The notes under the pieces are model-generated. The model did no database searches. It saw nothing but the letters and a program-made list of their open reading frames with translations, and had not been told where the DNA came from. Of a DNA stretch of 27,555 nt, positions 2,697-22,105 are shown in pieces. How positions within the stretch are numbered: the first letter of the stretch is position 1; every line of letters begins with the position of its first letter. Source of the DNA: an uncultured Verrucomicrobiota bacterium. GTDB lineage: Bacteria; Verrucomicrobiota; Verrucomicrobiia; Limisphaerales; CAZVRY01. The position numbers and the translations under genes are program-made. The DNA is taken from NCBI GenBank assembly GCA_964629545.1, contig CAZVRY010000069.1:1-27555 (forward strand), read 5' to 3'.

Positions 2697-3332
2697 TCAG
2701 GTCGCGGACCTGGGCTGGCTTCCCTTTCCCGCCGCCCCCTTTCGCCAACACCCGTCGAGGTGGTCATCGACCAATCCCATGGCCTGCATGAAGGCATAGA
2801 GGGTCGTGGGGCCCACATACGTCCACCCGCGTCGCTTCAGCTCCTTGGAAAGCGCTTTCGACTCCGGCGATTGGTTCAAGCCGGCGAGGAGGGCGCGGGT
2901 GAGGCGGGGCGGGCGCGAGCCGGGGGCCGGCTGAAACCGCCACACCAACGCGGCCAGCGAACCGCACTCGGCCGCCAACTCGCAGGCGCGGCGGGCGTTG
3001 TTGAGGGTCGATTCGATTTTGCCCCGATGCCGCACAATCCCGGGGTCCCCCAGCAACCGTTCCACCTCGCGCGTTCCCCATCGGGCCACCTCCCTGAAAT
3101 CGAAGCCGGCGAAGGCGCGGCGGAAGTTCTCCCGCTTGCGCAGGATGGTGAGCCAACTGAGCCCAGACTGGAAACCCTCGAGGATGAGCTTCTCGAAGAG
3201 GCGGCGGTCGTCGGTGACGGGGACGCCCCATTCGTCGTCATGGTAGGCGATGTAGTCGGGGGCGTCGGCGCACCACCAGCAGCGTGAGCGCCCGTCCGCA
3301 CCCGTGACGAGACCTGAATCGGCGTCGGCCAT
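2697..3332 (-). CDS. tag: DNA-3-methyladenine glycosylase I (Tag)
   Basis: This is the 3' 636 nt of ORF 2697..4988(-), giving 211 aa from MADADSG... It matches the Tag signature YIAYHDDEWGVPV...LFEKLILEGFQSGLSWLTILRKRENFRRAF. ATG at 3332 (plus-strand CAT 3330-3332). The upstream part of the 763-aa ORF is an out-of-frame overlap with the CocE gene. Confidence 0.9.
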   Translation of the reverse strand: MADADSGLVTGADGRSRCWWCADAPDYIAYHDDEWGVPVTDDRRLFEKLILEGFQSGLSWLTILRKRENFRRAFAGFDFREVARWGTREVERLLGDPGIVRHRGKIESTLNNARRACELAAECGSLAALVWRFQPAPGSRPPRLTRALLAGLNQSPESKALSKELKRRGWTYVGPTTLYAFMQAMGLVDDHLDGCWRKGAAGKGSQPRSAT

Positions 3333-3508
3333 ACAGGGCGAGAGAATGGAGAAAGCGCGACGACGCGGCAAGGCTGGGCAACGCGTGCCGCCAGGTCCCC
3401 CGCATGGTGTCCAGCCTTTAGGCGGTCTGGGGTGGACGGCACGCTGAAGCGTGGACCCCCAACGACGCGAAGGCACTCGCCGACCGGTTCGACCGGCGGC
3501 CCGGCCTC

Positions 3509-5158
3509 TCACCGTGCCGGCGGCCCGACGGGCAGGCTGATCTGACTTCCGTCCCTTCCGACCGACACCGTCAACTCGGCCCGACGCGGGTCGCCGGTGC
3601 GCGGCGGCTGGCCATTCTGCCGGTTCATTTCCAACGCGGGCGAACTGCTGGAGGCCACGTGCACCCGGAGGCGATGACCGCGATTGAAGACGATGCTGGT
3701 TGGCCAGAGCGGGACGGTCAGGGCCACCGTGTCTCCCGGCTGCATCGGTTCTTCCCGGTCTAATCCGTTCCGCAGTCGCAGCCGCCACGCCCCCTCGCAC
3801 ACCATCATGGAACGTCCGTCCGGATACACATCGCACACGCGCACGATCAGGTCGGCGTCGGGCGCGTCGCAGCGCACGTGCAAGCGGGCCGAAGCATGCC
3901 CGGTCACTTCCAACGGTTCCGCCAGGGCGGCCGTCGTGAAGACCAACACATCGGCCCGGCCTTCGATCGGGCGCTGATCCTTGGGGCCGGCCGGGATGGT
4001 CAGTTCGTACCCCCCCACGGTGGGGACCGGTTGGGCGGGGTCGCTCGTGTAGGACAGGCTGCCGGCCGGGCCAGGATCGTCGAAGGAGGCCGTGCGATCG
4101 GCGCGCAGGTGCAGCACCTTGGTCCTGACCTCCGCCGGCGGCCACACGGGGGACGTCCGCCACACGTTGCCGGGCGCCCCGGCTTCGCCCGCTGCCCCCA
4201 TCACGTAGTAAGTGACGGCCGGCGCGGTCAACAGCCCGTTGGCCTCCCCCTGCAGGGTCGCCGCAAACCACTTCCACGAATCGTGCACGTCGCCCGGCGT
4301 CCGGTTCGCCCCCGGGAACTCCAGGTCGCCCGCTTTCTCCTTCAACACGCCATGCGTCCACGGGCCCATGACCAGTTTCTGCCGGCCCCGCGCGGCCGGT
4401 CCGCCGTGATGCTGATACCCCTGAAAGGCCTCCACCGTGGCCTGCGCGAAGATGTCGAACCAGCCGCCGATATGCACCCCGGCCGCGTTGACGTTGTCGT
4501 AATGCGCGATCATCTCGCGGTCCCGCCAAAAGCGCGTGAGCGGGTAATTGGTGGTCCATCGATCCAGGGCGTGAGGCGCGAACTTGGTCTGCCGAAGCCA
4601 ATCCTCGGTCATCGCCTGGCGGAAGATGCCGCCCCGGTAAATGCTCTCGCGGAAGAGGCTGGGCGTGCCCACGGTGAGATGTTGGCTGACCAGGTTCGCG
4701 GCCCCCGTCCCGGCCAGCAGATACTGGGTGATCGCGCCCGCCGAGCCGCCCCAAGTCCCGAGTCGTCCGTTCGACCACGGTTGTTGCGCGATCCACGCCG
4801 CGGTGTCGTAGCCGTCCCACTGGCCCTCTGCCTGGCCGTCGGCATCGAACGGCAAATTCTCCCCTTCCGAGGCGAACCGCCCGCGGGTGTCTTGGGCCAC
4901 GAAGACGTAACCGCGGCGATTGGCCTCGGGGCCGAGCCCGGCGCCCAGGGCCTTGTTGTAGGGGAAACGGAGCAAAATGACCGGCCACCGGCCCTCACCC
5001 TCGGGCACGTAGACGTCGGTGGCCAGCTTGGTGCCGTCGCGCATCGCCACCTGGTGAGTTTGCGGAGCGGCGGCGTGCGAGGAACAGGGGCTCAGGGTGG
5101 ACAAGAGCAGGCAGGCACAGCCCAGCGAGAAGCGCATCCAGGGAGTCATGGCCGCCAT
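3509..5158 (-). CDS. CocE/NonD-family alpha/beta hydrolase (peptidase S15 / X-Pro dipeptidyl-peptidase-like), secreted
   Basis: ORF 3509..5206(-). Family-typical N-terminus MRDGTKLATDVYVPEGEGRWPVILLRFPYN plus QDTRGRFASEGE. Signal peptide MRFSLGCACLLLSTLSPCSSHAAAP. The track start at 5206 is a TTG. ATG candidates are at 5158, 5149 and 5140, and I chose 5158. Confidence 0.85.
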   Translation of the reverse strand: MAAMTPWMRFSLGCACLLLSTLSPCSSHAAAPQTHQVAMRDGTKLATDVYVPEGEGRWPVILLRFPYNKALGAGLGPEANRRGYVFVAQDTRGRFASEGENLPFDADGQAEGQWDGYDTAAWIAQQPWSNGRLGTWGGSAGAITQYLLAGTGAANLVSQHLTVGTPSLFRESIYRGGIFRQAMTEDWLRQTKFAPHALDRWTTNYPLTRFWRDREMIAHYDNVNAAGVHIGGWFDIFAQATVEAFQGYQHHGGPAARGRQKLVMGPWTHGVLKEKAGDLEFPGANRTPGDVHDSWKWFAATLQGEANGLLTAPAVTYYVMGAAGEAGAPGNVWRTSPVWPPAEVRTKVLHLRADRTASFDDPGPAGSLSYTSDPAQPVPTVGGYELTIPAGPKDQRPIEGRADVLVFTTAALAEPLEVTGHASARLHVRCDAPDADLIVRVCDVYPDGRSMMVCEGAWRLRLRNGLDREEPMQPGDTVALTVPLWPTSIVFNRGHRLRVHVASSSSPALEMNRQNGQPPRTGDPRRAELTVSVGRDGSQISLPVGPPAR

Positions 5159-5207
5159 CCAAACCCAGCCCCATCGGAAAGTCACGGCGGGAATCGAGCT
5201 GAGCAAA

Positions 5208-5650: not shown

Positions 5651-6472
5651 CTATCTCGTCCCGGTCAAGTTGGGCATCCGCTTGAACCGGTCCAAAGCCC
5701 CGCGCCGCCAGTCGCCAGGCTCGGCCGGGGCAGGAGGCGCGCTCGGCGACGGGGCGACGGGAGTTGGCGTGGGCATGGCCGTGGGGGCGGGGGGTGTGGC
5801 GGGCGGCGCGGGGGCGGGGATCGGCCCGGGCTCGGAAGGCCGCCGCGGCTCGAAGAACGAGCTCGAGGCGAAGGGGGAGGCCGCGGGGGCGGCCGCCGGG
5901 GCGGGGGCGGCCGCGGGGATGGAGGCGGCGGCGAGCACCTGGGTCTCCTCTTCCTCGGGCGCGCTCCGCCAGCAGACGCGCACGGAGGGCGCGGGTCCCG
6001 CGCTGACGAGGATTTCCTCGCAGCCGAGATGCTGGAGGTCCACCTTGTCGGCCAGTCTGCCGGCCTGGACGACGGCGCTCAGCATTGCGTGCACGGTGCG
6101 TTGGCTCTGGGACCCCGACAGGATCAAGCGCAGCCGGGCCTCCGGGACCTCTTCCACCCACGCCAAACGGGCGACCAGGCGCCGGTTGAGGCCGAGTTCC
6201 ATGTCGACGCCGATCAACTCGAAGCCGGCCTCGCGGAAGGTCTCGGCGCCGGCATCGATTTCGCGCAAGGTCTGGAGCAACCGTTCCTCGGTGTCCGCCT
6301 GCAGCCCGGACACGGCCGCCATCACGTCGGCCCGCATCTGTTGGACTTGCCCCGTCGTGCTGACCAGCGCCTCCCGGATATCGGCCACCTTGGGCGGGAC
6401 GCTCTCGATGATCTGTTGGACCTGGGCGGCCTTCTCGCGCAGGGTTTGCAGGCGGCGGGCGTATTTTTTCAT
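5651..6472 (-). CDS. Hypothetical 273-aa protein: about 170-aa predicted helical/coiled-coil N-terminal domain plus Pro/Ala-rich low-complexity C-terminus. Third gene of the flotillin-ATPase operon.
   Basis: ORF 5651..6472(-), ATG at 6472. Only 12 nt separate it from the stop of the giant ATPase gene (6485). The N-terminal composition is globular/amphipathic (MKKYARRLQTLREKAAQVQQIIESVPPKVADIREALVSTTGQVQQMRADV...), unlike the R/S/G-rich junk in the overlapping plus-strand ORFs. The C-terminus is AAPAPAAAPAAS...PAPAPPATPPAPTAMPTPTPVAPSPSAPPAPAEP. Confidence 0.6.
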   Translation of the reverse strand: MKKYARRLQTLREKAAQVQQIIESVPPKVADIREALVSTTGQVQQMRADVMAAVSGLQADTEERLLQTLREIDAGAETFREAGFELIGVDMELGLNRRLVARLAWVEEVPEARLRLILSGSQSQRTVHAMLSAVVQAGRLADKVDLQHLGCEEILVSAGPAPSVRVCWRSAPEEEETQVLAAASIPAAAPAPAAAPAASPFASSSFFEPRRPSEPGPIPAPAPPATPPAPTAMPTPTPVAPSPSAPPAPAEPGDWRRGALDRFKRMPNLTGTR

Positions 6473-6484
6473 GGGACGCAGGGG

Positions 6485-9400
6485 TTAGCCGCCGGTCCGG
6501 GACTCGGGACCGGGCGTGGGGGGAGGGGTCTGGCTTTGCTCGAGGGCCTGGTGGAAGCGTTCGAGGAAGGCGCGCTCGTTGGTGAGCATTTCCTGGGTCA
6601 GTTCGATTTCGACCGTGCCTTGCTTGGCCCGGGCCACCAGCAGGTCCTCGACATTCCGCAAGTGATCCCGCTGTCGCACCGCCGCGTCCTTGAGCGTGGC
6701 CAGCGTGCTGTGGATCATCTCCATCTCGTGCGACAGGCTGCTGACCTTCTCGGCCATGGAACCGGTGTGGACGGCGGTGATGGCCCGGCTGAGGTCTTCG
6801 CGCAACGCGCGCAATCCTTCCTGGAGCTGGGCCGCGAGCATCGAGCCCTCGCGTTCTCGCGCCAACACGGGCGGCGTGGCCGGGCTGGCCAGGTTGCGCT
6901 CGACCGCCGCCCGCAGTTGCTCGAGTTGGTGGGCCAGGGGACCGAGGTCGACGGCGAGCGAGGGCGTCGGAGACGGTGGCAGGGCGGCCGGCGAGGCCCG
7001 CCCCTGCTCGAGGGCCGAGCCGAGCCGGTCGAGCGCCTGCCCCAGCGGAGTCCAATCCACCACGACCTGGGGCGGGGCCGCGGGCGGCGGGGGCGTCCGC
7101 AGGCCTTGGACCACCGCCGCGCTCAGTTGCTCGAGACCGTGGCTGAGCGGAGCCAGGTCCACAACCACGGGCGTCGGCGCCTTCGCCAGTTGGCGGTCTA
7201 AGGTCTCTTGGATCGCTTGCAGACCGGACTGGAAATTGGCCAATTGCCCGACGATGCGTCCGACGCTGTCCTGCTGGCCGCCGCCGCCCATGAGGAGGTT
7301 GCGTTGGAAGGTCTGCTTGATGGCCTCCCAGCGCGCCTGTTCCTCGGGGGTCTGCCAAGCGAAGAGGGTTTTGAATTTGAGCAGGTTCGCCTCGGCCCCC
7401 GTGGTGAGGGTCTGCGATTCATTGCGGTAATGATCGAGGAGCAACGCCCGGACCTCGTCGTCGTTCATGATGGCCACGACCTTTTCGGCCAGGCGATTCA
7501 TGTTGCGATAGGAACCCTGCAACTTGAAGGGCGGCTCGGTCCGGAACTCGTCGGCCTGGGCGGCGGAGTGGATGTACTCCTGGTTGACCCGCAGGACCAC
7601 CTCGCGGAGGGCGACCAGTTTTTTCATCACGGCCAGGATCTCCTCGACCTCCTGGGACGAGTAGCTGGCCTCGAAGGCGATGCCCTCGCGCGCGCCGGTC
7701 TCGGCCATCTGTATGAAGGCGCGCACGTCCTGTTGGCTCTTGTTGGCGAGGGGGGCAAGGACGGGGTTCGAGGTGATGGCGTTCTCGAGGTAGCTGGCCT
7801 TGAAGCGGTCGGCGCTGCCGCCGATGATATCGCCCAGGTTGTAGGTGTCGGCCCGGTTCGCGAGCATGTCGGGCAGCTTGAACTTCTGGCCGCTCTCGGT
7901 GTAGGGGTTGCCCGCCATCACCACCACCACCTTGCGGCCCCGCAGATCGTAGGTTCGCGGGCGCCCCTGCCAGACCCCCTCGATCTTGCGCTGGGCGTCG
8001 CACAGGGAGATGAACTTCTGCAGGAACTCGGCGTGGCAATGCTGGATGTCGTCCACGCACAGCATCACGTTGTCCCCCATCTCCAGGGCCAGGTTCAGCT
8101 TCTCGATTTCCTCGCGCGCGGCCGCGTTGGGCGCTTCCTCGGGGTCCAAGGACGTCACCCCATGTCCGAGGGCGGGTCCGTTGACTTTGACGAAGATGAT
8201 GCCCAGCCGGTTGGCGAGGTATTCCATGAGGGTGGTCTTGCCGTAGCCCGGGGGTGAGATCAGCAACAGCATCCCCATCAGGTCCGTGCGCTTGGCGTCG
8301 CCGGCCGCCCCGATTTGTTTGGCCAGATTGTCGCCCACCAGCGGCAAGTAGACCTCGTCGATCAGTTGGTTGCGCACGAACGAGGTCAGCACCCGCGGCT
8401 TGAACGCCTCCAGCCGCAACTGTTCGCGCGCCCGGTCCAGGAGGCGCTGCTTGATCTGTTGGAACCGGGTGAAACGCGGCGCCACCGCGCGCTCGAACCG
8501 CTCCAGCCGCCTCCGGTAATCCAGGTAATCGAAGGTGTAACGGTTGCCCGCGATCCGCCCATGCACCCCCTTCATCCCCTCCAACTCCCGGCGCAGCCCC
8601 GCCTGCACCACCGTGTAACGCATCGTCTCCCCGCAAAACACCAGGGCCGCGACCATTTCGACGAAGGGAAGGCCGGCCGGCTGCTCGAGGAGGAACCCGC
8701 GCACCCAGTCGCGCACCAACTGCCATTCGCTGGCGGGCGAGGCGGCCAAGGCCTGCCGCGCCTCGACGAAGGTGCGCTCGCTCCCCTTGGTCACCAGGTG
8801 CTGGCGGAAGGCGCGGGCCAAACGCTCCGCCTCGTCGCTGACGGTGAAGGCGTCGCCCGTGATGGATTCGTAGAACAGGTACTCCGCCGCCGGCGCCGCC
8901 ACCTCGGGCGGGAACAGGCCGGTGTCCTGGACGAACCCGCCGAGCAACCCCTCCAGCCCGGCCAGGTAGTCCCGCTGCACCTCGTCGCCCGGGAACAGCC
9001 GGTTGCGCGCGGCGAACCCCTTGAGCTTGGCCGCCCACAGGGACTTGGTTTCCGCGGGGCAGAAGCGCAGCCAATAGACCACCGCACAGGCTCGCGCCGC
9101 GGGATGGTAGCGCGCCAACTGCAACGCCACGTGGGTCGTGAGCAGGGCCTGGAAAATCTGCGCCCCGTCCAGGTCGTGCACCCCTTTGGTGTAGCCCTCC
9201 TGGTAGCGTCCCGCCATGAACTCCTGCACCAGGACCAGGCGTTCCTCCTCCGATTTGGCCAGCGCTTCCGCCCACCGGCAGCGCGCGGGGGCGGACAGCT
9301 CGGAGGGCGCGGCCGGGACCGGCGCGGCGCCCTGGCCGAGATGTTGCAGCAACTGCCAGGCGAGATATTCCGCCCGGTAAACGTCCGGATTCTCCGACAC

Positions 9401-12181
9401 GACCTCCTGATCCCACACGTCCCGGATGGCCAGCAGTTCCTCGTCGCGAATCGGCTCGAAGTATTTCGTGCTCGTGAGGTGCAGACACGGCCCCTCCTGG
9501 CGGAGCACCACCGTGAGGTCGAGGGGCTGGGTATTGATGTTGAACCGGTGGCGCCCGAGTTGGATCACGGCCGCCCCGCCCACGAAGAGTTCCTGCCGGT
9601 CCTTGAGTTGGCGCACGGCCTCCTGCTGCACGCTCTTGAGCCGACCCTGCAAATCATCCGCCTTGATCGAGTCCCCCAAGGCCAGCAGGGCGGCGATGAT
9701 CTCGCGGACCTTGGCGATCATGAGGTCCGAGGCCATGTAGGTGTTGATTTCCTCCACCCGCTGGAAGGTGCCCAGCCGGTTCTGGATCACCTTGAGGATC
9801 CGCTCCGCCGCGGTCATTTGGGCGGACGCCTTGCGGTTGCGCTGTTCGACCAGCGCCACTTTCCGCTGCTCGAAGGCCTCGTAGAGCGACGCCCGCTTCT
9901 CCGAAAGCTGGACCGTGTATTCCTCGAAATCGGCGAAGGCCCCCTCGAGTTCCTCCAGTTGCACCGTGATGCGGTTCAGGTACTCGTCGCACTTGGCCGG
10001 GGTGTCGCAGAGGTCCAGGTAACTCGAGGCCGACTGCCCCAGCAGTTTGACCTGGGCCGCAAACTGGGCCGCTCCCTCGCTCGCCACCAGCGCTTGCAGC
10101 CGCTTCTTCAGCCCCGCCTTGACCTGGTTCAGGGTGGCGTAAATCGAGGTGATGCCGTCGATGATCCGGGTCGCCTCGGTCGCGTCCTCGATCCGGAGGC
10201 TGTTCACGATCTCGATCAGCATCTCGAGCTCGCCCCCCGCCTCCGCCACCGCTTTCTCGATCTTCCGTCCCTCCGCCACTTTGCCGACCTGGTCGACGGC
10301 GGCCAGGTGTTCCTGGGCCTGCTTGCGATACGGTTCGAGCGCCTCGGGTTTGAGCAGGAACGTGACGCAGGCGCGGGCCAGTTCCTCGCCTTGGGCCACC
10401 ACCGTCCCCTCGAGCGCGTCCACCTGCGCCAGGTCGACGTAGCGCGCTTCCTTCAACGTGATGAGCTCGCCGCGCAGGTGGCGGAGGGCGGCCAGGTTGA
10501 CCACGAACTCGTTCAGCGTGCGGAAGCTGGCCCGGCGGATGGTGTGGCCGCGCTCCTCGCAACGGCGCCGCGCGTCCTGCACCCGCTGGATCGCCTCGCG
10601 CTGGAGGCGGCGCACCTTGTCGAACTCCTCCACCGCTTGATCGGCGGTCTGGCGCACCTGGCGCAGCGACTCGTGCAGCCCGAAGCCCTCCTCGCTGGCC
10701 AGCCACGGATAGGCGTCCAACATCGTGCCGCACCGCCGCACAACGTCCGCATACAACTCGGCATAGGGGGTCGGCCGGCCGATCAGGGTCAGCACCTCGT
10801 TGCCCTCGGCCAGACAGCGCACCACGTCCTTGTTTCCCACCTGGTAGAGGAAGGCCTTGCGCTGGCCCTCGGGCTCATAGCCGGGCTGGAAGAACGGCGT
10901 CTGCCGCAACTGGATCGTGTGATGCTTCTGCGGTTCCTCGTCGCCCCGGAACAACAGCAGGTGGCCATCGGCGAAGAGGGAGAACCCGTGGCAGGTGATG
11001 CGCTCCTCGACCTTCTGCGTGATCAGCCGGTAGGGCATCAGCACGTAGAGCCCCGATTCGCGATGGTAGAAGACGAAGAGCGAATCCTCCCCGCCCGGCC
11101 CGTGGACCACCCGCTCGAGGCGGAGATTCTGCTCGCGGCTCTCGAACCGCTTGAGCTCGCCGGTCCCGAGGTAGTAGCCGTCCGGGAAGATCAGCCCATG
11201 CCCCTCCGGCAGGAGCGCGCACGATTGGCCGATCGTGTCCACCCGCACGACCGTCTGCTGCTTCTCGTTGAAGATGAAATGCCGCGCCACCTCCTCCTTG
11301 TAGGGGCGCACCCGCAGCAGGATCAGGTGCTCGAAGATGGCGTAGGCGATCTCGGCGTCGTCCACCTTCTGGTTCGCATCGTCCACCGGCTCCGAGTAAA
11401 TCCCCTCCCCCGTGCTGGTGTTGTCCTCCACCTTGATGGTCAGGTCGCCGCTCACGCACTCCACGAACAGGCGGTCCTCGATCGAGACATGCGGATGGTC
11501 CCCGTAGCGGAACGACTCGCGGTCGGGGGTTTGCCAGCGGAACTCGTGCCGGGGCGGGAAGCCGATTTTTCGGAACTCGGTCTCGGCCCGGCTGTCCAGG
11601 AACCGGAGTTGTCCGCCCTGGAAGGCCCATTTGAAGACGGCCACGTCCTCCAGGCCCGCCCCCACCTGGAACACCATGTAGAGCTTGCCCTCGATGAGCG
11701 AGAACTTGGCGAACGCCGCCCGCTCATAGATGTTGTAGAGGCGCTTGAAGTCGGTGAGGAAGGTCCGGTCCTGGAGGGGCGCCAGTTCGGCCTCCTTGAA
11801 GGCCCCCGACTCGGCATCGCGCTGGTAAATCGCGAACACGTCGCCCAGCTCGATCTCCTTCTTGAGCCCGAACTGGACGTTGAAGCCGAAGAGGAACCGC
11901 CCCCGCCCCAGCGGCACCATGTCGCGCGGGACACAGTTGTGCGCGGTGGTCACGCGGTCGGACTGGAGCAGTTTGAACTCCACCGACCCGAAGACCTCGC
12001 GGCGCCGCGCATCCAGCCGGGCCATCCCCTCCCGCAGGGCCGTGCCCTGCACTTGCAGCCGTTGCCGGATGATCTCGTAGGTGGCGCTGCCGAGGGCCTG
12101 CGCCGGCGAGGGGGCCGCGGGGGCCGCCGCCGGGGCCGCCGCCTCCGCCGACCCAGCGGGCTGAGGAGCCGGATCCGCCAT
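6485..12181 (-). CDS. Giant (1898 aa) multidomain P-loop AAA+ ATPase with coiled-coil regions; function unknown
   Basis: ORF 6485..12181(-), ATG at 12181, 8 nt after the flotillin stop. Walker A LLLISPPGYGKTTLMEY (nt approx 8233-8253). Walker B VMLCVDDIQH (nt approx 8044-8062). Sensor-like VVVVMAGNPYTESG. Pro/Ala-rich N-terminus MADPAPQPAGSAEAAAPAAAPAAPSP. Long heptad-like helical stretches. Three imperfect approx 35-aa repeats VDLxPLxxxLEQLxxAV...P-rich encoded at nt approx 6890-7175. Confidence 0.85.
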   Translation of the reverse strand: MADPAPQPAGSAEAAAPAAAPAAPSPAQALGSATYEIIRQRLQVQGTALREGMARLDARRREVFGSVEFKLLQSDRVTTAHNCVPRDMVPLGRGRFLFGFNVQFGLKKEIELGDVFAIYQRDAESGAFKEAELAPLQDRTFLTDFKRLYNIYERAAFAKFSLIEGKLYMVFQVGAGLEDVAVFKWAFQGGQLRFLDSRAETEFRKIGFPPRHEFRWQTPDRESFRYGDHPHVSIEDRLFVECVSGDLTIKVEDNTSTGEGIYSEPVDDANQKVDDAEIAYAIFEHLILLRVRPYKEEVARHFIFNEKQQTVVRVDTIGQSCALLPEGHGLIFPDGYYLGTGELKRFESREQNLRLERVVHGPGGEDSLFVFYHRESGLYVLMPYRLITQKVEERITCHGFSLFADGHLLLFRGDEEPQKHHTIQLRQTPFFQPGYEPEGQRKAFLYQVGNKDVVRCLAEGNEVLTLIGRPTPYAELYADVVRRCGTMLDAYPWLASEEGFGLHESLRQVRQTADQAVEEFDKVRRLQREAIQRVQDARRRCEERGHTIRRASFRTLNEFVVNLAALRHLRGELITLKEARYVDLAQVDALEGTVVAQGEELARACVTFLLKPEALEPYRKQAQEHLAAVDQVGKVAEGRKIEKAVAEAGGELEMLIEIVNSLRIEDATEATRIIDGITSIYATLNQVKAGLKKRLQALVASEGAAQFAAQVKLLGQSASSYLDLCDTPAKCDEYLNRITVQLEELEGAFADFEEYTVQLSEKRASLYEAFEQRKVALVEQRNRKASAQMTAAERILKVIQNRLGTFQRVEEINTYMASDLMIAKVREIIAALLALGDSIKADDLQGRLKSVQQEAVRQLKDRQELFVGGAAVIQLGRHRFNINTQPLDLTVVLRQEGPCLHLTSTKYFEPIRDEELLAIRDVWDQEVVSENPDVYRAEYLAWQLLQHLGQGAAPVPAAPSELSAPARCRWAEALAKSEEERLVLVQEFMAGRYQEGYTKGVHDLDGAQIFQALLTTHVALQLARYHPAARACAVVYWLRFCPAETKSLWAAKLKGFAARNRLFPGDEVQRDYLAGLEGLLGGFVQDTGLFPPEVAAPAAEYLFYESITGDAFTVSDEAERLARAFRQHLVTKGSERTFVEARQALAASPASEWQLVRDWVRGFLLEQPAGLPFVEMVAALVFCGETMRYTVVQAGLRRELEGMKGVHGRIAGNRYTFDYLDYRRRLERFERAVAPRFTRFQQIKQRLLDRAREQLRLEAFKPRVLTSFVRNQLIDEVYLPLVGDNLAKQIGAAGDAKRTDLMGMLLLISPPGYGKTTLMEYLANRLGIIFVKVNGPALGHGVTSLDPEEAPNAAAREEIEKLNLALEMGDNVMLCVDDIQHCHAEFLQKFISLCDAQRKIEGVWQGRPRTYDLRGRKVVVVMAGNPYTESGQKFKLPDMLANRADTYNLGDIIGGSADRFKASYLENAITSNPVLAPLANKSQQDVRAFIQMAETGAREGIAFEASYSSQEVEEILAVMKKLVALREVVLRVNQEYIHSAAQADEFRTEPPFKLQGSYRNMNRLAEKVVAIMNDDEVRALLLDHYRNESQTLTTGAEANLLKFKTLFAWQTPEEQARWEAIKQTFQRNLLMGGGGQQDSVGRIVGQLANFQSGLQAIQETLDRQLAKAPTPVVVDLAPLSHGLEQLSAAVVQGLRTPPPPAAPPQVVVDWTPLGQALDRLGSALEQGRASPAALPPSPTPSLAVDLGPLAHQLEQLRAAVERNLASPATPPVLAREREGSMLAAQLQEGLRALREDLSRAITAVHTGSMAEKVSSLSHEMEMIHSTLATLKDAAVRQRDHLRNVEDLLVARAKQGTVEIELTQEMLTNERAFLERFHQALEQSQTPPPTPGPESRTGG

Positions 12182-14601: not shown

Positions 14602-15906
14602 CTACATCCGCAACACCAGGGCGGCCAGGCCCAGGAAGAAGAAAAACCCGGCCACGTCCGTCACCGTCGTGAGGAATATGCTCGAAGCCAGCGCCGGATC
14701 GACCCGGCACGCCCGCAGGCCCAGCGGGATCAAGACCCCCGAGAGCGCAGCCGCCACCTGGTTGAGCACCATGGCCGCCCCCGCCACCAGGCCCAGCGCG
14801 AGGCTGCCTTTCCAGAGATAACCCGCCAGCCCCACGATCAGCCCAATGGCCAGGCCGTTCGCCCAGCCCAAAATCAGCTCCTTGCCCAGCGCGCGCCGGC
14901 CCTCCCCGGGCGGCAGTTCGCCCAGGGCCAAATCGCGAATGATAATCGTCAGCGTTTGCATCCCGGCGTTCCCGCCCTGGCCGGCAATGATCGGCAGGAA
15001 AATCGCCAGCGCGGTCCACTGCGCGATCGTGCTCTCGAACACCCCCACCACCGCCGCCGCCGCAAAGGCGGTCCCCAGATTCACCAGCAACCAAGGCAGA
15101 CGCCGCCGCAGCGACTTCGTCCACGGCGTCAACACCCGCTCCTCCCCGGACAAACCAACCATCAACTGCATGTCCTCGGTCGCCTCCTTGCGGGCAATCT
15201 CCAGGGCGTCGTTGGCCTTGACCACCCCCACCAACCGCCCCTCCGCATCCAGCACCGGCAACCCCAGGTAATGATAATGCTCGAACTGCCGGGCCAGTTC
15301 CTCCTGGTCCGCCTCCACCCGCACCGCCTTCACCTCCCGATTCATGATCTCGCGCAACCGCCGGTCGGGCCGCCGAAAGACCAGGTCCCGCAGGCTGACG
15401 ATGCCCACCAGCCGCTGCTCCGCGTCGGTCACGTAAAGGTAGGCGATGTCCCGAGAGGGCGCGTCGGCTTCCCGGCGACGCAGCACCTCGCGGGCCTGCT
15501 CGATCGTCATGTCCTCCGCCAGCGCGATGAAGCGATTGGCCATGATCCCCCCGGCTGTGTCCTCAGGATAACGCAGGAGCGTCCGCACCGCCCCGGCCTG
15601 CTCCGCCCCCAAGCGGGCCAAGACCTCCCGACGCAACCCCGGCGGCGCCTCCTGGAGCACGTCGACGGCGTCCTGCGGGGGCATGCGCTGAAGGAACTGG
15701 GCCAGGGTGGCGGGTTCCATGGCGGCCACCAGGCCGCCGACCTGTTCCTGGTCCACCTCGGCCAGCGTGGCGGCCGCCTGCTCGGGAGGCAACTGTCCCA
15801 GCACCCGGCCGGCTTCCTCCGTGCTTAAGCGCTGCAAATGATCGGCCAGGTCCGCGGCATGCAGGCCCTGGCACTGTTCCAGCGTCAGCGGTTCGAGTTC
15901 GCTCAT
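14602..15906 (-). CDS. mgtE: Magnesium transporter MgtE (N-domain, CBS pair, 5-TM channel domain)
   Basis: ORF 14602..16011(-). The track start runs 35 codons into a MITE (peptide ...PSFKMRMADPRV). The true start is most likely MSELEPLTLEQ at nt 15906 (plus-strand CAT 15904-15906). MgtE hallmarks are GGIMANRFIALAEDMTIEQAREVLRR, the CBS region and the C-terminal TM region with GQGGNAGMQTLTI. Confidence 0.9.
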   Translation of the reverse strand: MSELEPLTLEQCQGLHAADLADHLQRLSTEEAGRVLGQLPPEQAAATLAEVDQEQVGGLVAAMEPATLAQFLQRMPPQDAVDVLQEAPPGLRREVLARLGAEQAGAVRTLLRYPEDTAGGIMANRFIALAEDMTIEQAREVLRRREADAPSRDIAYLYVTDAEQRLVGIVSLRDLVFRRPDRRLREIMNREVKAVRVEADQEELARQFEHYHYLGLPVLDAEGRLVGVVKANDALEIARKEATEDMQLMVGLSGEERVLTPWTKSLRRRLPWLLVNLGTAFAAAAVVGVFESTIAQWTALAIFLPIIAGQGGNAGMQTLTIIIRDLALGELPPGEGRRALGKELILGWANGLAIGLIVGLAGYLWKGSLALGLVAGAAMVLNQVAAALSGVLIPLGLRACRVDPALASSIFLTTVTDVAGFFFFLGLAALVLRM

Positions 15907-15960
15907 GCCCCGAGCTTGGCAAGAAGTCGAGCCCTTGGGAAGGACCCGGACCCGCGGATC

Positions 15961-16103
15961 AGCCATTCTCATTTTGAAACTCGGACGGCCCCTCACCCGG
16001 CCTTTGGCCACCCTCTCCCCGCGCCTTTTATGCCAGAAGGCAGCCGAGGCGCGGGGAGAGGGAAGGGGAGAGGGGGACTTCTTCTTTCAAAATGAGAATT
16101 GCT
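15961..16103. repeat. MITE-like palindromic repeat, copy R2 (family B): near-perfect 19-bp terminal inverted repeats AGCCATTCTCATTTTGAAA / TTTCAAAATGAGAATTGCT enclosing the internal palindrome CCCTCTCCCCGCGCC...GGCGCGGGGAGAGGG
   Basis: Terminal inverted repeats (TIRs) and the internal palindrome are read directly. The element is flanked by the 10-bp direct repeat CCCGCGGATC (15951-15960 and 16105-16114). This could be a target-site duplication or part of a tandem unit. Confidence 0.65.
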
Positions 16104-16267: not shown

Positions 16268-16678
16268 ATGCGTGAGCGGATTTGCGAATCGACGCACTGC
16301 GCTTATTGCTTGACGGACCCTGGATCGAGAACCTGGGTTGCGCCCCAAACCGCTGCGCAACATTGCCACCGCCTTGGGTCCTGGGTATCGTTGCCTCCAG
16401 TGAGCACTCACCGCCAAGCGTTCTGGGCCAGGCATCGGGGCTTGGTCTGGTCGAATCCGGACGCCACGGATGCCGTGCACATCCGGGCGGCGTTGCTGCA
16501 CCCTCGTTTCAGCCAATTGCTCGCGATTGCCGCGGAATTCGGGCCGCCGCGGTTGAGCAGGGAATGGGCCGCACTGAGTGCGGAAATGCCCGCGGAGACA
16601 AACCGCGTGCGTCCCGCGGTCGAGCGTGCGCTCCGCAATATCGAGAAGGGATTCGCGGATGCTGCTGCCCGACACTGA
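16268..16678 (+). CDS. Possible AbiEi-like antitoxin/regulator partner of the downstream AbiEii toxin. The start is uncertain and the protein is probably shorter than the 136-aa track ORF.
   Basis: The ORF ends 20 nt inside the start of the AbiEii-family gene, the short overlap typical of toxin-antitoxin pairs. It lies in a lower-GC stretch. The N-terminal 50 residues of the track ORF look non-protein-like, and I recognise no wHTH motif. Confidence 0.3.
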   Translation: MRERICESTHCAYCLTDPGSRTWVAPQTAAQHCHRLGSWVSLPPVSTHRQAFWARHRGLVWSNPDATDAVHIRAALLHPRFSQLLAIAAEFGPPRLSREWAALSAEMPAETNRVRPAVERALRNIEKGFADAAARH

Positions 16679-17372
16679 ACGCGTGTGGCAATTCCTGCAG
16701 AGGCAGCCAGCGCTGGCAGGCTTTGTCCTGGTGGGCGGCTCGGCCCTGGCGCTCCGGTTGAAGCACCGGATCAGCGAAGATCTCGACCTGGTTCTCCCCG
16801 CGCAGAAACTGCCTCGGGCTCCGCTGGATGTTCTGCGCCTGGCGGCTCAAGCGGAGAATCTGGAATTTCGACTGCTGGACGACGAAGCTGCCGTCATGGC
16901 GTTCGCCGAGGGCGGTCTTGAATTGCACGATTACCAGCAGAACTACCTGGTCAACGACCGCATTCGGCTGTCGATGTTCACGCCAGAGCCATCTCTGGCC
17001 AAAGTGCTCACCGGGCCGCCCGAGCCGAGGGTCCGAGTCGCGACATTGCCCGAGCTCTTCAAGTCCAAGTGCCTTGTTTCGGCCCTCCGTTCGAAAACCC
17101 GCGATTGGTTCGACCTGTATGTGCTGCTTCGAAACCATGGCTTCACCGCCCTGGATTACCGGACCGCCTTTCTCGAAGCCGGCCTTGAACCCCAATGCGA
17201 CATCGGCTTGAGCCGCCTGTGCAGCGGCCGGCCGCAAGCCGATGACGAAGGTTACCGTCACCTCATGCCCGACCCGCCCTCGCTGGCCGAAATGAGGGCC
17301 TTCTTCACCGCGATGCGCGACCAACTTGAACAAACACTCGCCGCCGAAGTCGCCTCCCGACGGCCCAGGTGA
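16659..17372 (+). CDS. abiEii: AbiEii/AbiGii-family (DUF1814) nucleotidyltransferase toxin of a type IV toxin-antitoxin / abortive-infection system
   Basis: ORF 16578..17372(+). Probable start MLLPDTERVWQF at 16659. Nucleotidyltransferase motif LVGGSALALRLKHRISEDLDLV (GG[ST]AL...RxSxDLD). Second AbiEii hallmark KSKCLVSALRSKTRDWFDLYVLL (K..A..R.K.RD.[YF]DL). Confidence 0.75.
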   Translation: MLLPDTERVWQFLQRQPALAGFVLVGGSALALRLKHRISEDLDLVLPAQKLPRAPLDVLRLAAQAENLEFRLLDDEAAVMAFAEGGLELHDYQQNYLVNDRIRLSMFTPEPSLAKVLTGPPEPRVRVATLPELFKSKCLVSALRSKTRDWFDLYVLLRNHGFTALDYRTAFLEAGLEPQCDIGLSRLCSGRPQADDEGYRHLMPDPPSLAEMRAFFTAMRDQLEQTLAAEVASRRPR

Positions 17373-19756: not shown

Positions 19757-20230
19757 CTACGGCGCCGCCGCCGTCGGCGCCGCCTGCGCTCGGCCCGCCA
19801 CCTGGCGCAGCAGCTCCAGCGTGATCTCGTCCGCCGTCAAGATGCGGTCCCCGTAGTGGTCCTGCTTGAACTGCTCGGCGGCCGCCCGGCCGGCGATGGG
19901 CACGAGGGCCTTCCCCATCGGGCCCACGACGTCCGAACCGCTGACAAAGAGGACGTCCCCGACCGGGCGCCGCTGCTGCGTGTAGTATTCGGTCACCCAC
20001 GCATCGCGGCTGCCCTCGCCCTGAGGGCTGCGCCAGTAGGCGAACATGCATCGCTCGCAGCAGAAGCGATCCGGGCGGCCCTGCGGGTCGGTCAGGCCGG
20101 CGATCCAGCGCGGCGCCTGGTCCACCAGCATGCCGCACTTGCGACAGCGGTCGCCTTGGGGGCGACACCCGCCGGCCAACACCAGCGCACAAGCCAACCA
20201 CAACCAACCGCGTGCTCGGATGAATTTCAT
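19757..20230 (-). CDS. nosL: NosL-family copper-binding lipoprotein (157 aa)
   Basis: Within ORF 19757..20698(-). Start MKFIRARGWLWLACALVLAGGC (lipobox LAGGC) at 20230. Conserved NosL motifs CRKCGM (CxxCGM), RFCCERCM (kFCs) and EYYTQQ...GDVLFVSGSDVVGPMGKALVPIAGRAAAEQF, compared with P. stutzeri NosL CHVCGM...KFCS...AYYVVGTSLKGAMGASLASF. Confidence 0.8.
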   Translation of the reverse strand: MKFIRARGWLWLACALVLAGGCRPQGDRCRKCGMLVDQAPRWIAGLTDPQGRPDRFCCERCMFAYWRSPQGEGSRDAWVTEYYTQQRRPVGDVLFVSGSDVVGPMGKALVPIAGRAAAEQFKQDHYGDRILTADEITLELLRQVAGRAQAAPTAAAP

Positions 20231-20368
20231 ATTGCTGAGTTCATTTGTAAGCAGACATGCAACGGCTCCCCTCTCCCTGTCTCTCCCCACCCCCCCTGTA
20301 TCACTTCGCTTTCCAGGGTTGGGGAGAGGGGGCGGGGTGGGTGTCTGCTGATTTCCGCACTCGCCCAT
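20231..20368. repeat. MITE/REP-like palindromic repeat, copy R5 (family A variant). It fills the nosL/membrane-protein intergenic gap exactly.
   Basis: The left arm attgctgagttcatttgtaagcagacatgcaacggctcccctctccc aligns to the R6 arm attgatgagtgcataagtagacagacacgggatggctcccctctccc. Core ctctccccacccc...ttccagggttggggagaggg. It begins 1 nt after the nosL ATG (CAT 20228-20230) and ends 3 nt before the upstream stop at 20371. Confidence 0.6.
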
Positions 20369-20370
20369 GG

Positions 20371-21405
20371 CTACACCTTTCCAAAGACCGTGACCCCGCC
20401 CGCTTGGAGCCAGTAACGCGCCACCGGAACCGCTCCGCAGACCAGGACGGCCAACCAAGCCAACGCCGCCCAGCCCCCCAGCGTCCGCTCCATGGCCTCG
20501 AGGGACGCGGGCTCGGCCACGGCGGGGCGTTGGAGTTCGATCAGACCAAGACCCGCCCCGTTGATGCTCGCCAGCAGGAGCGCGCCGAAGAGCGGCCAAC
20601 CCAGGCCGCCGCCCTGCGCGTGCAGCAGGCAAAACGGACAGAGGTGCGTGGGCGTGCCCAGGATGTGCGGCGCGACCACGGTCAGTATCGCGGGCCATAC
20701 GGCCACGGAGGCAACCGCCGACCCGGCGCCCGCCCCCAAGGCCGCCCCGCGGGTCGGACGCCGCCAGGTGCGCGCCGAGACCCCGCCCGCCACCACCACG
20801 GCGGCGAGACCGAGAACGGCCGCCGGCCCCGGGGCCAGCAAACGGGCGCCCGCGTGGTGTTGCACGACCGCGGCGTCCACCCAGACCGAACAGCAGGAGG
20901 CGATGACCTTGAAATCCAGTTGCCAGGCGAAGGCCAGCGCCAGGCCCAGATCAGCCACCGCGAATGCAGCCACCGGCAGCAGGGCCAGAAACTTGCGTCG
21001 CGTGAGGACCGGGGCCTCCAATCGCAGGTCGAACCGGTGCAGCACGACCCACCACCCGCAGACCAGCGCGGTCAACGCGCTCGCCAGGAGGCTGGGAAAA
21101 CCCATGGGCGCAGAGGCGAGGACCCCAAACGCACACATCGCCCCGCGAATGCTCCCCACCAAATGATCGGCCACGAACACGGCCAGGCCCAGCCCCAGAA
21201 TCTCCAACAGCAGGGCGACCTGGAGGACCGAGGCCGCCAACTCGGCCTGGCGTTCGAGGGCGAGTTGGGCTTCGCTCGATTGCCCCGGGCGCCACCGTCG
21301 CGCCACCTGGAACCCGAGGATGCCCCCGGCCACACAGAGCGCGGCGGCCACCGCGGTCTGGAGCACCCGGGCCAGCAGCCACAAGTTGAGAAAGTTCGTG
21401 GCCAT
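20371..21405 (-). CDS. Hypothetical polytopic membrane protein (about 344 aa, at least 8 predicted TM segments) with His/Cys-rich motifs (HLCPFCLLHAQGG, VVQHHAG); possible metal-handling component
   Basis: ORF 20371..21489(-). Probable start MATNFLNLWLLARVL at 21405, preceded by a strong SD (GAGGGAGGAGGG). Lies 10 nt downstream of the ABC ATPase stop. Confidence 0.6.
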   Translation of the reverse strand: MATNFLNLWLLARVLQTAVAAALCVAGGILGFQVARRWRPGQSSEAQLALERQAELAASVLQVALLLEILGLGLAVFVADHLVGSIRGAMCAFGVLASAPMGFPSLLASALTALVCGWWVVLHRFDLRLEAPVLTRRKFLALLPVAAFAVADLGLALAFAWQLDFKVIASCCSVWVDAAVVQHHAGARLLAPGPAAVLGLAAVVVAGGVSARTWRRPTRGAALGAGAGSAVASVAVWPAILTVVAPHILGTPTHLCPFCLLHAQGGGLGWPLFGALLLASINGAGLGLIELQRPAVAEPASLEAMERTLGGWAALAWLAVLVCGAVPVARYWLQAGGVTVFGKV

Positions 21406-21415
21406 CCCTCCTCCC

Positions 21416-22105
21416 TCAACGCTCCAACGCCCCGTCCACCAGCCGGACCACCCCGTCCACCCTCGGATCCTCCGCCAACCGCCGGTCATGGGTTGTAGCC
21501 AGGAGCGTCCGGCCTTCTGCGCGCAGGCGCAGGAGTTCTTCCACCAGGATGCGCACGTTCTCCGTATCCAGCGCCGCCGTGGGTTCGTCCAGCATCAGCA
21601 CCGGGGCTTCCGTCACCAGGGCGCGGATCAAGGCGGCGCGCTGGCGTTCCCCGGCGGAGAGCCGCTCCACGCGCTGGTGGGCGAAGGGGGTCAGGCCGAA
21701 CCGTTCCAACAGGTCGTGGGCGCGCCGCTGGTCCTCCCTTCCGGGCCCGCCCGCGGGCACCAGGGGCAGGACGATGTTCTCGAGCAGGCTCATGCCGGTG
21801 GCCAGCGCAAACTCCTGAAACACCATCCCCACCAGGTGGCGGCGGACCAGGGCCCGATGATGATCGCGCAAGTGGGTGATGCAGCGGCCCGCCAAATGCA
21901 CCTCCCCGGCCGTCGGCGCGACCATGCCGGCCAACAACGCAAGCAACGTGGTCTTCCCGGAACCGCTCGGACCGCTCACGATCCAGAACTCCCGCTCCGG
22001 AACGGTCAGGTCGATGTCCCGCAAGGCGACCTTCTCCCTCCGTCCGGCCGCGTAACGCTTGGTCAAGGCCACCGCGCGCACCATCGCTGACCCCGCCGCG
22101 TTCAT
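21416..22105 (-). CDS. ABC transporter ATP-binding protein (LolD/MacB/FtsE-like)
   Basis: ORF 21416..22105(-). Walker A GPSGSGKTTLL, signature LSAGERQRAALIRAL, Walker B LMLDEPTAALD. Its ATG overlaps the permease stop (ATGA at 22102-22105). Confidence 0.9.
   Translation of the reverse strand: MNAAGSAMVRAVALTKRYAAGRREKVALRDIDLTVPEREFWIVSGPSGSGKTTLLALLAGMVAPTAGEVHLAGRCITHLRDHHRALVRRHLVGMVFQEFALATGMSLLENIVLPLVPAGGPGREDQRRAHDLLERFGLTPFAHQRVERLSAGERQRAALIRALVTEAPVLMLDEPTAALDTENVRILVEELLRLRAEGRTLLATTHDRRLAEDPRVDGVVRLVDGALER

Follow-up and report, generated by a model that had tools for sequence, protein, structure and literature searches.

Passages of three papers (PMC13220708, PMC13086221, and PMC11260169) describe SPFH proteins as the builders of large membrane-anchored cages, namely, HflK/C around FtsH, QmcA-YbbJ, and flotillin-1/2. 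A comparative-genomics study of the phage shock protein (PSP) response (mSystems, 2024, PMC11237479; example Dokdonia donghaensis) has already described the operon that is the subject of this work and the architecture of its large ATPase, which corresponds to the Pfam combination DUF3686 + DUF7902 + AAA. In that study, abbreviated operons without PspA were noted to be more widespread, and the partner genes were treated as optional; its account is a prediction only, given without structure, clade assignment, or experiment. The stretch of DNA analyzed here, referred to as the window, comprises 27,555 nucleotides of contig CAZVRY010000069.1 from an uncultured Verrucomicrobiota bacterium and has a G+C content of 68%. 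It contains an uninterrupted 1898-codon open reading frame (ORF) at 6485..12181 on the minus strand (1898 aa plus stop), identified from the ORF list and its translation, that encodes a giant ATPase with the same architecture.

On balance, we think that this ORF probably encodes the ATPase subunit of a conserved membrane module of two to four genes, (YqiJ/NfeD)-flotillin-giant ATPase, that remodels membrane scaffolds. The ATPase family and its linkage to flotillin are known as a prediction, and the idea of a flotillin factor is already present in the literature in outline. What the window adds is a lineage-specific elaboration, namely, a repeat tail, a small partner protein, and the absence of NfeD from the operon, and not a new kind of system. 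Compared with the published operon, the clade of the window is without YqiJ/NfeD, PspA, and CesT, all of which are absent at the window locus and at the eight closest loci (L001 to L008). Compared with the published ATPase, it adds one to four helical repeats and a helical hairpin, as well as a private 273-aa protein encoded downstream.

Distribution of the ATPase and linkage to flotillin

A search of 5.8 billion proteins returned more than 2045 relatives of the ATPase at E <=1e-10. The best 120 of these are 65-73% identical to it, have lengths of 1737-1931 aa, and come from Verrucomicrobiota; where they carry a name at all, it is "DNA repair ATPase," "AAA family ATPase," or "MoxR-like ATPase." A HMMER search with aa 700-1898 over 1.84 billion representatives at 50% identity retrieved 1471 clusters at E <=1e-3, among them 550 at E <=1e-30, and in most full-length members (1600-1800 aa) the alignment stops at about aa 1662 of the query. 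Among 185,579 species genomes, at least 585 loci were found to encode a relative, and 80 loci were kept for the analysis of gene neighborhoods. The 80 loci represent Verrucomicrobiota, Planctomycetota, Bacteroidota, Desulfobacterota, Clostridia, and Fibrobacterota. With the plasmid records, which extend the range to Pseudomonadota, Actinomycetota, and Deinococcota, the family is present in at least nine phyla. Its carriers include Pseudomonas fluorescens pQBR103, Streptomyces, Proteus mirabilis, and Flavobacteriia, and several of them, P. fluorescens with pQBR103 being a case in point, are genetically tractable.

The preliminary description of this DNA, made from the letters and a list of ORFs, left out a key element of context in its account of the ATPase. 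The stop codon of a flotillin/YqiK-like gene is located 8 nt before the ATPase start, and this arrangement is conserved across phyla, which points to the function of the ATPase. A flotillin homologue was identified upstream and on the same strand in 58 of the 60 loci, from six phyla, that have at least 2.6 kb of upstream sequence, and the RefSeq names of these homologues are "flotillin family protein" or "SPFH domain-containing protein." In the flotillin-like protein of the window, an N-terminal hydrophobic, putatively transmembrane segment and an SPFH/Band_7 domain are followed by a long coiled coil rich in Glu and Ala and by a C-terminal domain that is conserved. Scanning of the full-length protein gave no Pfam match; Band_7 was found when the first 250 aa were scanned alone (E=5e-11, 43.4 bits for a cut-off of 23.6).

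Further genes of the module recur at many loci. At 48 of 57 loci, flotillin is preceded by the gene of a YqiJ/NfeD-like membrane protein (~220 aa), and PspA is present at 16 loci; in Bacteroidota, PspA and a CesT/Tir-YbjN-like gene lie upstream of YqiJ. The loci of Flavobacteriia and Cytophagia match the published operon gene for gene, in the order HTH-S24, CesT, PspA, YqiJ, flotillin, and ATPase. A Streptomyces plasmid has the order hypothetical protein, "flotillin family protein," and "DNA repair ATPase." On pQBR103 the order is PspA, rhomboid, DUF2491, DUF350, DUF1190, glutathionylspermidine-synthase-like protein, hypothetical protein, SPFH, and "DNA repair ATPase."

Several individual loci deserve mention in their own right. 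On the P. fluorescens SBW25 plasmid pQBR103 (L082, NC_009444.1, 85.1-97.6 kb), the SPFH-ATPase pair is joined to a yjfIJKLMC-like PspA/polyamine operon. At six loci of Flavobacteriia and Hymenobacter (L028, L029, L058, L061, L068, and L070), a LexA-like regulator with HTH_3 and a weak Peptidase_S24 match is encoded divergently upstream of the CesT-PspA-YqiJ-flotillin-ATPase operon, and this S24-type regulator hints at a stress-induced derepression of the operon. Another six loci from Bacteroidota and Verrucomicrobiota (L018, L024, L064, L072, L044, and L054) carry 0.6-2.4 kb of nonconserved small genes between flotillin and ATPase. Among their products are lipoproteins and small membrane proteins, and toxin-antitoxin-like pairs and a transposase-like ORF also occur; the slot between flotillin and ATPase is a variable site inside an otherwise conserved module.

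The same data bear on the idea of an anti-phage or conflict system, in which a large NTPase with a propeller sensor would, together with the membrane SPFH protein, sense infection and trigger a response at the membrane. The patchy spread over at least nine phyla and the presence on megaplasmids would fit such a system, as would the variable and partly toxin-antitoxin-like small genes in the slot mentioned above and, in the window, an AbiEii-like gene about 2 kb from the operon. However, no PADLOC model scored above noise for the ATPase, the flotillin-like protein, or the 273-aa protein, none of the recognizable effector domains (nuclease, TIR, or pore-former) was found, and no homologue was detected in 50,697 phage records. 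Furthermore, the conserved partners PspA, YqiJ, and CesT are stress genes and not defense genes. A role in conflict is therefore considered improbable.

The AAA+ module

The ATPase ORF has a strong coding signature, with a G+C content at third codon positions (GC3) of 0.90 and a codon-position G+C as in the genuine genes of the contig. Two AlphaFold2 (AF2) models of its product were built on an alignment of 80 sequences spanning 26-75% identity; the model of aa 1-1200 has a predicted local distance difference test score (pLDDT) of 86.4, and that of aa 880-1898 has a pLDDT of 83.6 and a predicted template modeling score (pTM) of 0.70.

Walker A and Walker B motifs had been noted in the preliminary description at a distance of about 60 aa, and they were located as described, with 62 aa from K1315 to D1377. 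In the predicted structure both are embedded in an ASCE P-loop fold with an intact AAA+ core. SPPGYGKTT, the Walker A motif, comes after the predicted strand 1304-1308; it does not vary among 52 diverse homologues, and 250 of 256 family members have the identical sequence. The Walker B motif VMLCVDD (aa 1372-1378) lies on a predicted strand. The Asp-Asp pair that this motif has in place of the usual DE holds across the family, since DD is present in 249 of the 256 members and DE in none; it is therefore a family signature and not a defect. N1425 immediately follows strand 1418-1424, R1443 ends helix 1438-1443, and both residues are invariant. From their positions in the model, N1425 would be sensor 1 and R1443 is a candidate for the Arg finger. 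The segment VVVVMAGNPYTESG, previously read as sensor-1/arginine-finger-like, thus appears to contain the former but not the latter, as R1443 sits 18 residues beyond. QGSYR, with R1559 at the sensor-2 position, is conserved in 242 of the 256 members and falls among the lid helices (aa 1457-1640). In total, S1309-T1316, D1377, D1378, N1425, R1443, and R1559 are invariant in the 52 sequences, which share 32-48% identity.

The AAA+ region is the most conserved part of the protein, with 59-80% identity across phyla, and its assignment to a clade depended on structure. Pfam AAA, AAA_5, and AAA_22 match aa 1303-1432 barely above their cut-offs: AAA_5 is marginal at aa 1305-1432 (24.3 bits for a cut-off of 22), and the scores of PF00004 (25.6 for 21.2) and AAA_22 (27.3 for 27) are similar. 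A profile of the region searched against the PDB sequences gave a match confined to the P-loop surroundings of p97 and RuvB, so that sequence alone is unable to assign the clade and a comparison of structures is required. Foldseek with the C-terminal model retrieved the AAA+ proteins MCM, CbbQ, NorQ, and RuvB, and the fold superposes on solved AAA+ domains. Its closest structural neighbors are CbbQ and NorQ, members of the MoxR/AAA_5 group. The earlier suggestion of an AAA_5/MoxR-like fold is the structural assignment that fits best. The model includes a pre-sensor-1 hairpin, whereas the beta2-alpha2 segment (aa 1335-1352) is modeled as a loop and a short helix, with no hairpin. Judged from the predicted structure, the protein has a single AAA+ module of the MoxR/midasin/dynein type in which all catalytic motifs are intact.

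This assignment brings up another explanation, namely, that the ATPase is a MoxR-type chaperone that matures one specific protein complex or inserts cofactors into it; flotillin would then be merely a membrane platform, and the scaffold would not be remodeled. CbbQ and NorQ, the closest structures, are the MoxR maturases of Rubisco and nitric oxide reductase; AAA_5 is above its cut-off, and the propeller described below could bind a client. However, MoxR-type AAA+ proteins usually work with a VWA-domain partner, and no match to such a partner was obtained in the window genes or in the conserved neighbor clusters of 81 loci. Neither is a candidate client gene conserved nearby, and the conserved neighbors are exclusively the membrane-scaffold and stress genes flotillin, YqiJ/NfeD, PspA, and CesT. 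A maturase function is thus judged unlikely.

The structure also bears on the names given to the family by RefSeq/PGAP and in the Pfam description of DUF3686, according to which the protein would be a DNA repair ATPase. Apart from these database names ("DNA repair ATPase" and "ATPase involved in DNA repair"), a weak similarity to RuvB_N and MCM can be cited, which is limited to the generic AAA+ core; the RuvB match reaches 21.9 bits, compared with a family cut-off of 282. The AAA+ module is one contiguous unit (aa 1272-1640) and not a split ABC head of the SbcC/RecN/SMC type, and the N terminus, which is a propeller, contains no second half of a nucleotide-binding site. No DNA-binding or nuclease domain was found in the 1898 aa, and no repair genes are among the conserved neighbors. 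A function in DNA repair is very improbable, and the label "DNA repair ATPase" is unsupported and probably misleading.

The N-terminal propeller, helical arm, and middle domain

The first 1250 or so aa had initially been considered to be free of any recognizable motif. This is not the case, given that Pfam DUF3686 (PF12458) spans aa 49-491 (E=1.5e-161, 538 bits for a cut-off of 25) and DUF7902 (PF25472) spans aa 613-696 (E=5e-26, 91 bits for a cut-off of 26); a conserved helical domain was found in addition. In the AF2 model, aa 70-427 are all-beta and form about seven four-stranded sheets with a pLDDT of approximately 90-95, and Foldseek with the N-terminal model retrieved propellers, namely, those of prolyl-oligopeptidase, WD40/IFT-A, and tricorn. 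The propeller is followed by some 420 aa of long helices (aa 444-865), which reach 58 residues, and these by a small beta unit (aa 872-910), a helical domain (aa 936-1186), and, after the AAA+ core, a helical lid that extends to about aa 1640.

The middle domain contains the motif E995-G-Y-x-K-G-V-H-D-x-D1005 (window 9167-9199), which, together with R1030 and H1207, is invariant in 35 diverse sequences; the identity of the domain is 27-34% among the more distant loci used. No consistent relative emerged when a profile of aa 870-1262 was searched against the PDB sequences or when 35 members were scanned with Pfam. A reading of the VHDxD part of the motif as that of an HD phosphohydrolase is therefore unsupported and is not claimed here. 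The EGYxKGVHDxD site could be a catalytic or a force-transmitting element.

The repeat tail and the 273-aa protein

The three tandem units of about 35 aa seen in the preliminary description are real, have strongly conserved positions, and are not of low complexity, as judged from a shuffle test and from the columns of a hidden Markov model (HMM). Their starts are at aa 1671, 1706, and 1742, some 360 aa downstream of Walker A, and in each of them a Pro-rich linker comes after a conserved 26-aa motif (P-x-V-x-V-D-L-x-P-L-x3-L-E-A-L...). Pairs of repeats have local BLOSUM62 scores of 51-65, compared with 17 +/- 4 in shuffles, none of 2000 shuffles scored that high, and any other 26-mer of the ATPase scores at most 23. 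In the HMM, built from 129 repeat copies, the consensus is P-Q-V-V-V-D-L-A-P-L-G-K-G-L-E-A-L-R-A-A-V-E-K-R-L, followed by the Pro-rich linker, with D conserved at 98%, P and L at 97% each, E at 91%, and a further L at 90%; the matches in the window protein have E values of 2e-13 to 9e-15. Tandem Repeats Finder detected no tandem repeat in the DNA of this region. The duplication is hence old and the copies have diverged, and a recent DNA duplication as the origin of the repeats is rejected, as the similarity exists at the protein level only.

The triple number, in turn, is not conserved across homologues. Among the 120 close homologues (>=65% identical), 29 proteins have one copy, 70 have two, 16 have three, 3 have four, and 2 have none. 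Of 150 representatives obtained by clustering at 50% (<=55% identity), a single one, a fragment, contains the motif; the HMM was negative in the other 149, and the repeats were thus rejected as a family-wide module. At the locus level, the motif is present in seven of the eight closest Verrucomicrobiota loci, and there is one weak match in a Planctomycetota locus. In the AF2 model the repeats correspond to three isolated helices in a region that mostly has a pLDDT below 50. They are a lineage-specific C-terminal appendage of variable copy number, made of short helices on Pro-rich linkers, and do not define the family. The last helix of the family-wide core, GLQAIQETLDRQLAKAPTP, was also half-matched by the HMM (E=2.4e-4; aa 1653-1671, with the helix at aa 1651-1669, window 7175-7231), and for this reason the clade-specific repeats may have arisen by amplification of that helix, a suggestion made from sequence similarity.

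The terminal segment that follows the repeats had been described as a coiled coil. Helices are indeed predicted there, but in the form of a helical hairpin (aa 1777-1883, pLDDT 67-80; H898-925 and H930-1004 in the numbering of the C-terminal AF2 model) that is conserved within the close clade only.

The gene for the 273-aa protein begins 12 nt after the ATPase stop. In this protein, a conserved folded N-domain spanning about aa 1-165 precedes an SSSFFEPR motif, which is followed by a Pro-rich linker and by GDWRxxALDRFKxMPxL, a conserved C-terminal motif. Its Pro-rich tail and the Pro/Ala-rich N-tail of the ATPase are both present as noted earlier, and the terminal tails are predicted to be disordered, which is consistent with tethers. 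The 273-aa protein matched no Pfam, PDB, or PADLOC family, and a homologue search with it returned 5 close matches only; further homologues came from the related loci themselves. A homologue of 257-303 aa is encoded downstream of the ATPase at six of the eight clade loci (L001 to L008); at a seventh, L003, which is on a truncated contig, it was detected by tblastn, and none was found at L005. The 273-aa protein and the repeat tail of the ATPase co-occur in the same Verrucomicrobiota clade. At two more distant Verrucomicrobiota loci, L007 (11563-12417, minus strand) and L008 (8422-9285, minus strand), the homologue lies downstream of the ATPase on the opposite strand and shares 25-27% identity over the N-domain; the tail of these two proteins is acidic and not Pro-rich, and their C-terminal motif is different.

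Features of the operon and other genes of the window

The features identified in the operon are compiled in Table 1.

Table 1. Positions in the window of the genes flanking the ATPase and of the parts of the ATPase, with the basis of each assignment
Feature	Position	Strand	Basis
Upstream flotillin/YqiK-like gene, 733 aa	12190..14391	-	Band_7 match; synteny; RefSeq names of homologues
Pro/Ala-rich disordered N-tail, aa 1-25	12107..12181	-	pLDDT 35-41; poorly conserved, 27% gaps among close homologues
Conserved N-terminal long helix, aa 26-64	11990..12106	-	AF2 helix H26-64, pLDDT >90; R41 and R60 invariant
Predicted beta-propeller of ~7 blades, aa 70-427, core of DUF3686	10901..11974	-	Pfam PF12458; AF2 all-beta; Foldseek
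Long-helix (coiled-coil-like) arm, aa 444-865	9587..10852	-	AF2 helices of 22-58 residues, pLDDT 71-96
DUF7902 within the helical arm, aa 613-696	10094-10345	-	Pfam PF25472
Small beta unit and conserved helical middle domain, aa 872-1262	8396..9568	-	AF2 pLDDT mostly >90
AAA+ alpha/beta core, aa 1272-1450	7832..8368	-	
Walker A SPPGYGKTT, aa 1309-1317	8231-8257	-	
Walker B LCVDDIQ, aa 1374-1380	8042-8062	-	
Pre-sensor-1 beta-hairpin, aa 1399-1412	7946-7987	-	Predicted, AF2
Sensor-1 motif VVVVMAGNPYTESG, aa 1418-1431, with N1425	7889-7930	-	
Arg-finger candidate R1443	7853-7855	-	
Helical lid and C-terminal end of the conserved core, aa 1457-1662	7196..7813	-	AF2 pLDDT mostly 90-97 to ~aa 1630, 69-79 beyond
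Sensor-2 candidate R1559 in QGSYR	7505-7519	-	
Three tandem ~35-aa units, aa 1669-1772	6866..7177	-	Shuffle test; HMM matches
C-terminal helical hairpin, aa 1777-1883, then short Pro-rich end	6533..6853	-	AF2 helices, pLDDT 67-80
Clade-specific 273-aa protein	5651..6472	-	Translation; alignment of 11 homologues

Upstream of flotillin, the next gene on the same strand, after a gap of about 210 nt, encodes an MgtE magnesium transporter (14602-16011, minus strand). On the other side of the operon, an S15 X-Pro dipeptidyl-peptidase ORF (3509-5206, minus strand) is well supported and overlaps, in another frame, a long mechanical ORF (2697-4988, minus strand) with a methyladenine glycosylase (Tag) domain in its last ~180 aa only; the real genes there are probably a short tag gene (~2697-3300) and the S15 peptidase. 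MgtE and the S15 peptidase, which flank the operon, were conserved neighbors in none of the 81 loci. An AbiEii-type nucleotidyltransferase toxin domain (Pfam E=7e-17) is encoded at 16578-17372 on the plus strand, roughly 2 kb away from where the flotillin gene starts. Further away, genes for a NosL-domain protein, an unassigned 372-aa ORF, an ABC ATPase, and a MacB/FtsX-type permease are clustered at 19757-23343 (minus strand), possibly forming a copper- or lipoprotein-related export system, and the 691-aa product of 25403-27478 (plus strand) has a middle domain of the hydrazine-synthase-alpha type (HZS_alpha, E=5e-20).

Discussion

The ATPase gene almost always directly follows the gene of a membrane flotillin, and the ATPase therefore most likely acts on membrane scaffolds. 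In the mechanism proposed here, the AAA+ modules would assemble into a ring, and the helical arms would hold the propellers outward, as platforms for binding. Movements driven by ATP at the cytoplasmic face of the inner membrane may then assemble, open, or disassemble the flotillin (SPFH) cage; alternative targets would be associated PspA/ESCRT-III-like polymers or clients that are pulled out of the scaffolds. This activity would be set in the maintenance of the envelope or membrane under stress. In the clade of the window, which is without YqiJ/NfeD, the repeat tail and the two short tethered motifs of the 273-aa protein would probably provide a multivalent docking instead.

A number of points weigh against this proposal. 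Flotillin is absent upstream in 2 of the 60 loci, and 11 loci have variable genes, more than 700 bp in extent, between it and the ATPase. The VWA partner that is usual for MoxR-type AAA+ proteins is not present. The contact with flotillin, the ring, and the localization at the membrane are all features that we infer, and the ATPase itself is without a predicted membrane segment. An activity hinted at by the conserved EGYxKGVHDxD motif is left unexplained by the proposed mechanism, and the co-occurrence of the repeat tail and the 273-aa protein could reflect shared ancestry rather than function. Finally, in the literature searched there was no paper that names DUF3686 or DUF7902 and none that reports an experiment on this ATPase family.

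To our knowledge, how SPFH/flotillin cages assemble, open, and recycle is an open question in bacteria and eukaryotes alike, and we know of no ATP-driven factor that acts on flotillin. Since it is widespread, tightly linked to flotillin, and equipped with intact catalytic motifs, the ATPase family is a concrete candidate for such a factor. A more far-reaching version of the proposal, which we put forward tentatively and regard as possible rather than probable, is that bacterial SPFH cages have a dedicated motor, in which a ring with six propeller-tipped arms would grip the flotillin cage and use ATP to open or dismantle it in a Vps4-like manner; with the EGYxKGVHDxD domain there would be a new element for force transmission or catalysis, and in the clade of the window the one to four repeats would be multivalent sites that dock the 273-aa protein as an adaptor. 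If true, the ATPase would be the SPFH counterpart of Vps4 acting on ESCRT-III.

A comparison with known systems shows where the ATPase of the window resembles them and where it departs from them. It shares only 14-18% identity with CbbQ/NorQ and with the AAA_5 modules of midasin and dynein. In contrast to MoxR-type ATPases, it has DD instead of DE in Walker B, has no VWA partner in the neighborhoods analyzed, and has no predicted beta-hairpin in the helix-2 region. Whereas those modules occur as a stand-alone protein of about 270 aa or within a six-module chain, the window protein has one AAA+ module that ends a 1260-aa N-terminal extension. As in FtsH-HflK/C, where an SPFH cage encloses an AAA+ protease, an AAA+ machine appears to be paired with a membrane-anchored SPFH oligomer, and most relatives follow the operon logic of SPFH-NfeD, which is the cage type of QmcA-YbbJ. 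Unlike FtsH, the ATPase is without a protease domain and without a membrane anchor, and it belongs to another AAA+ clade; the likeness to FtsH-HflK/C would thus be one of mechanism only, with no homology beyond the AAA+ core. Like Vps4/ESCRT-III and the AAA+ partners of PspA, the ATPase is linked, here at the genomic level, to membrane-remodeling polymers, and in Bacteroidota and on pQBR103 PspA is encoded in the very same operon.

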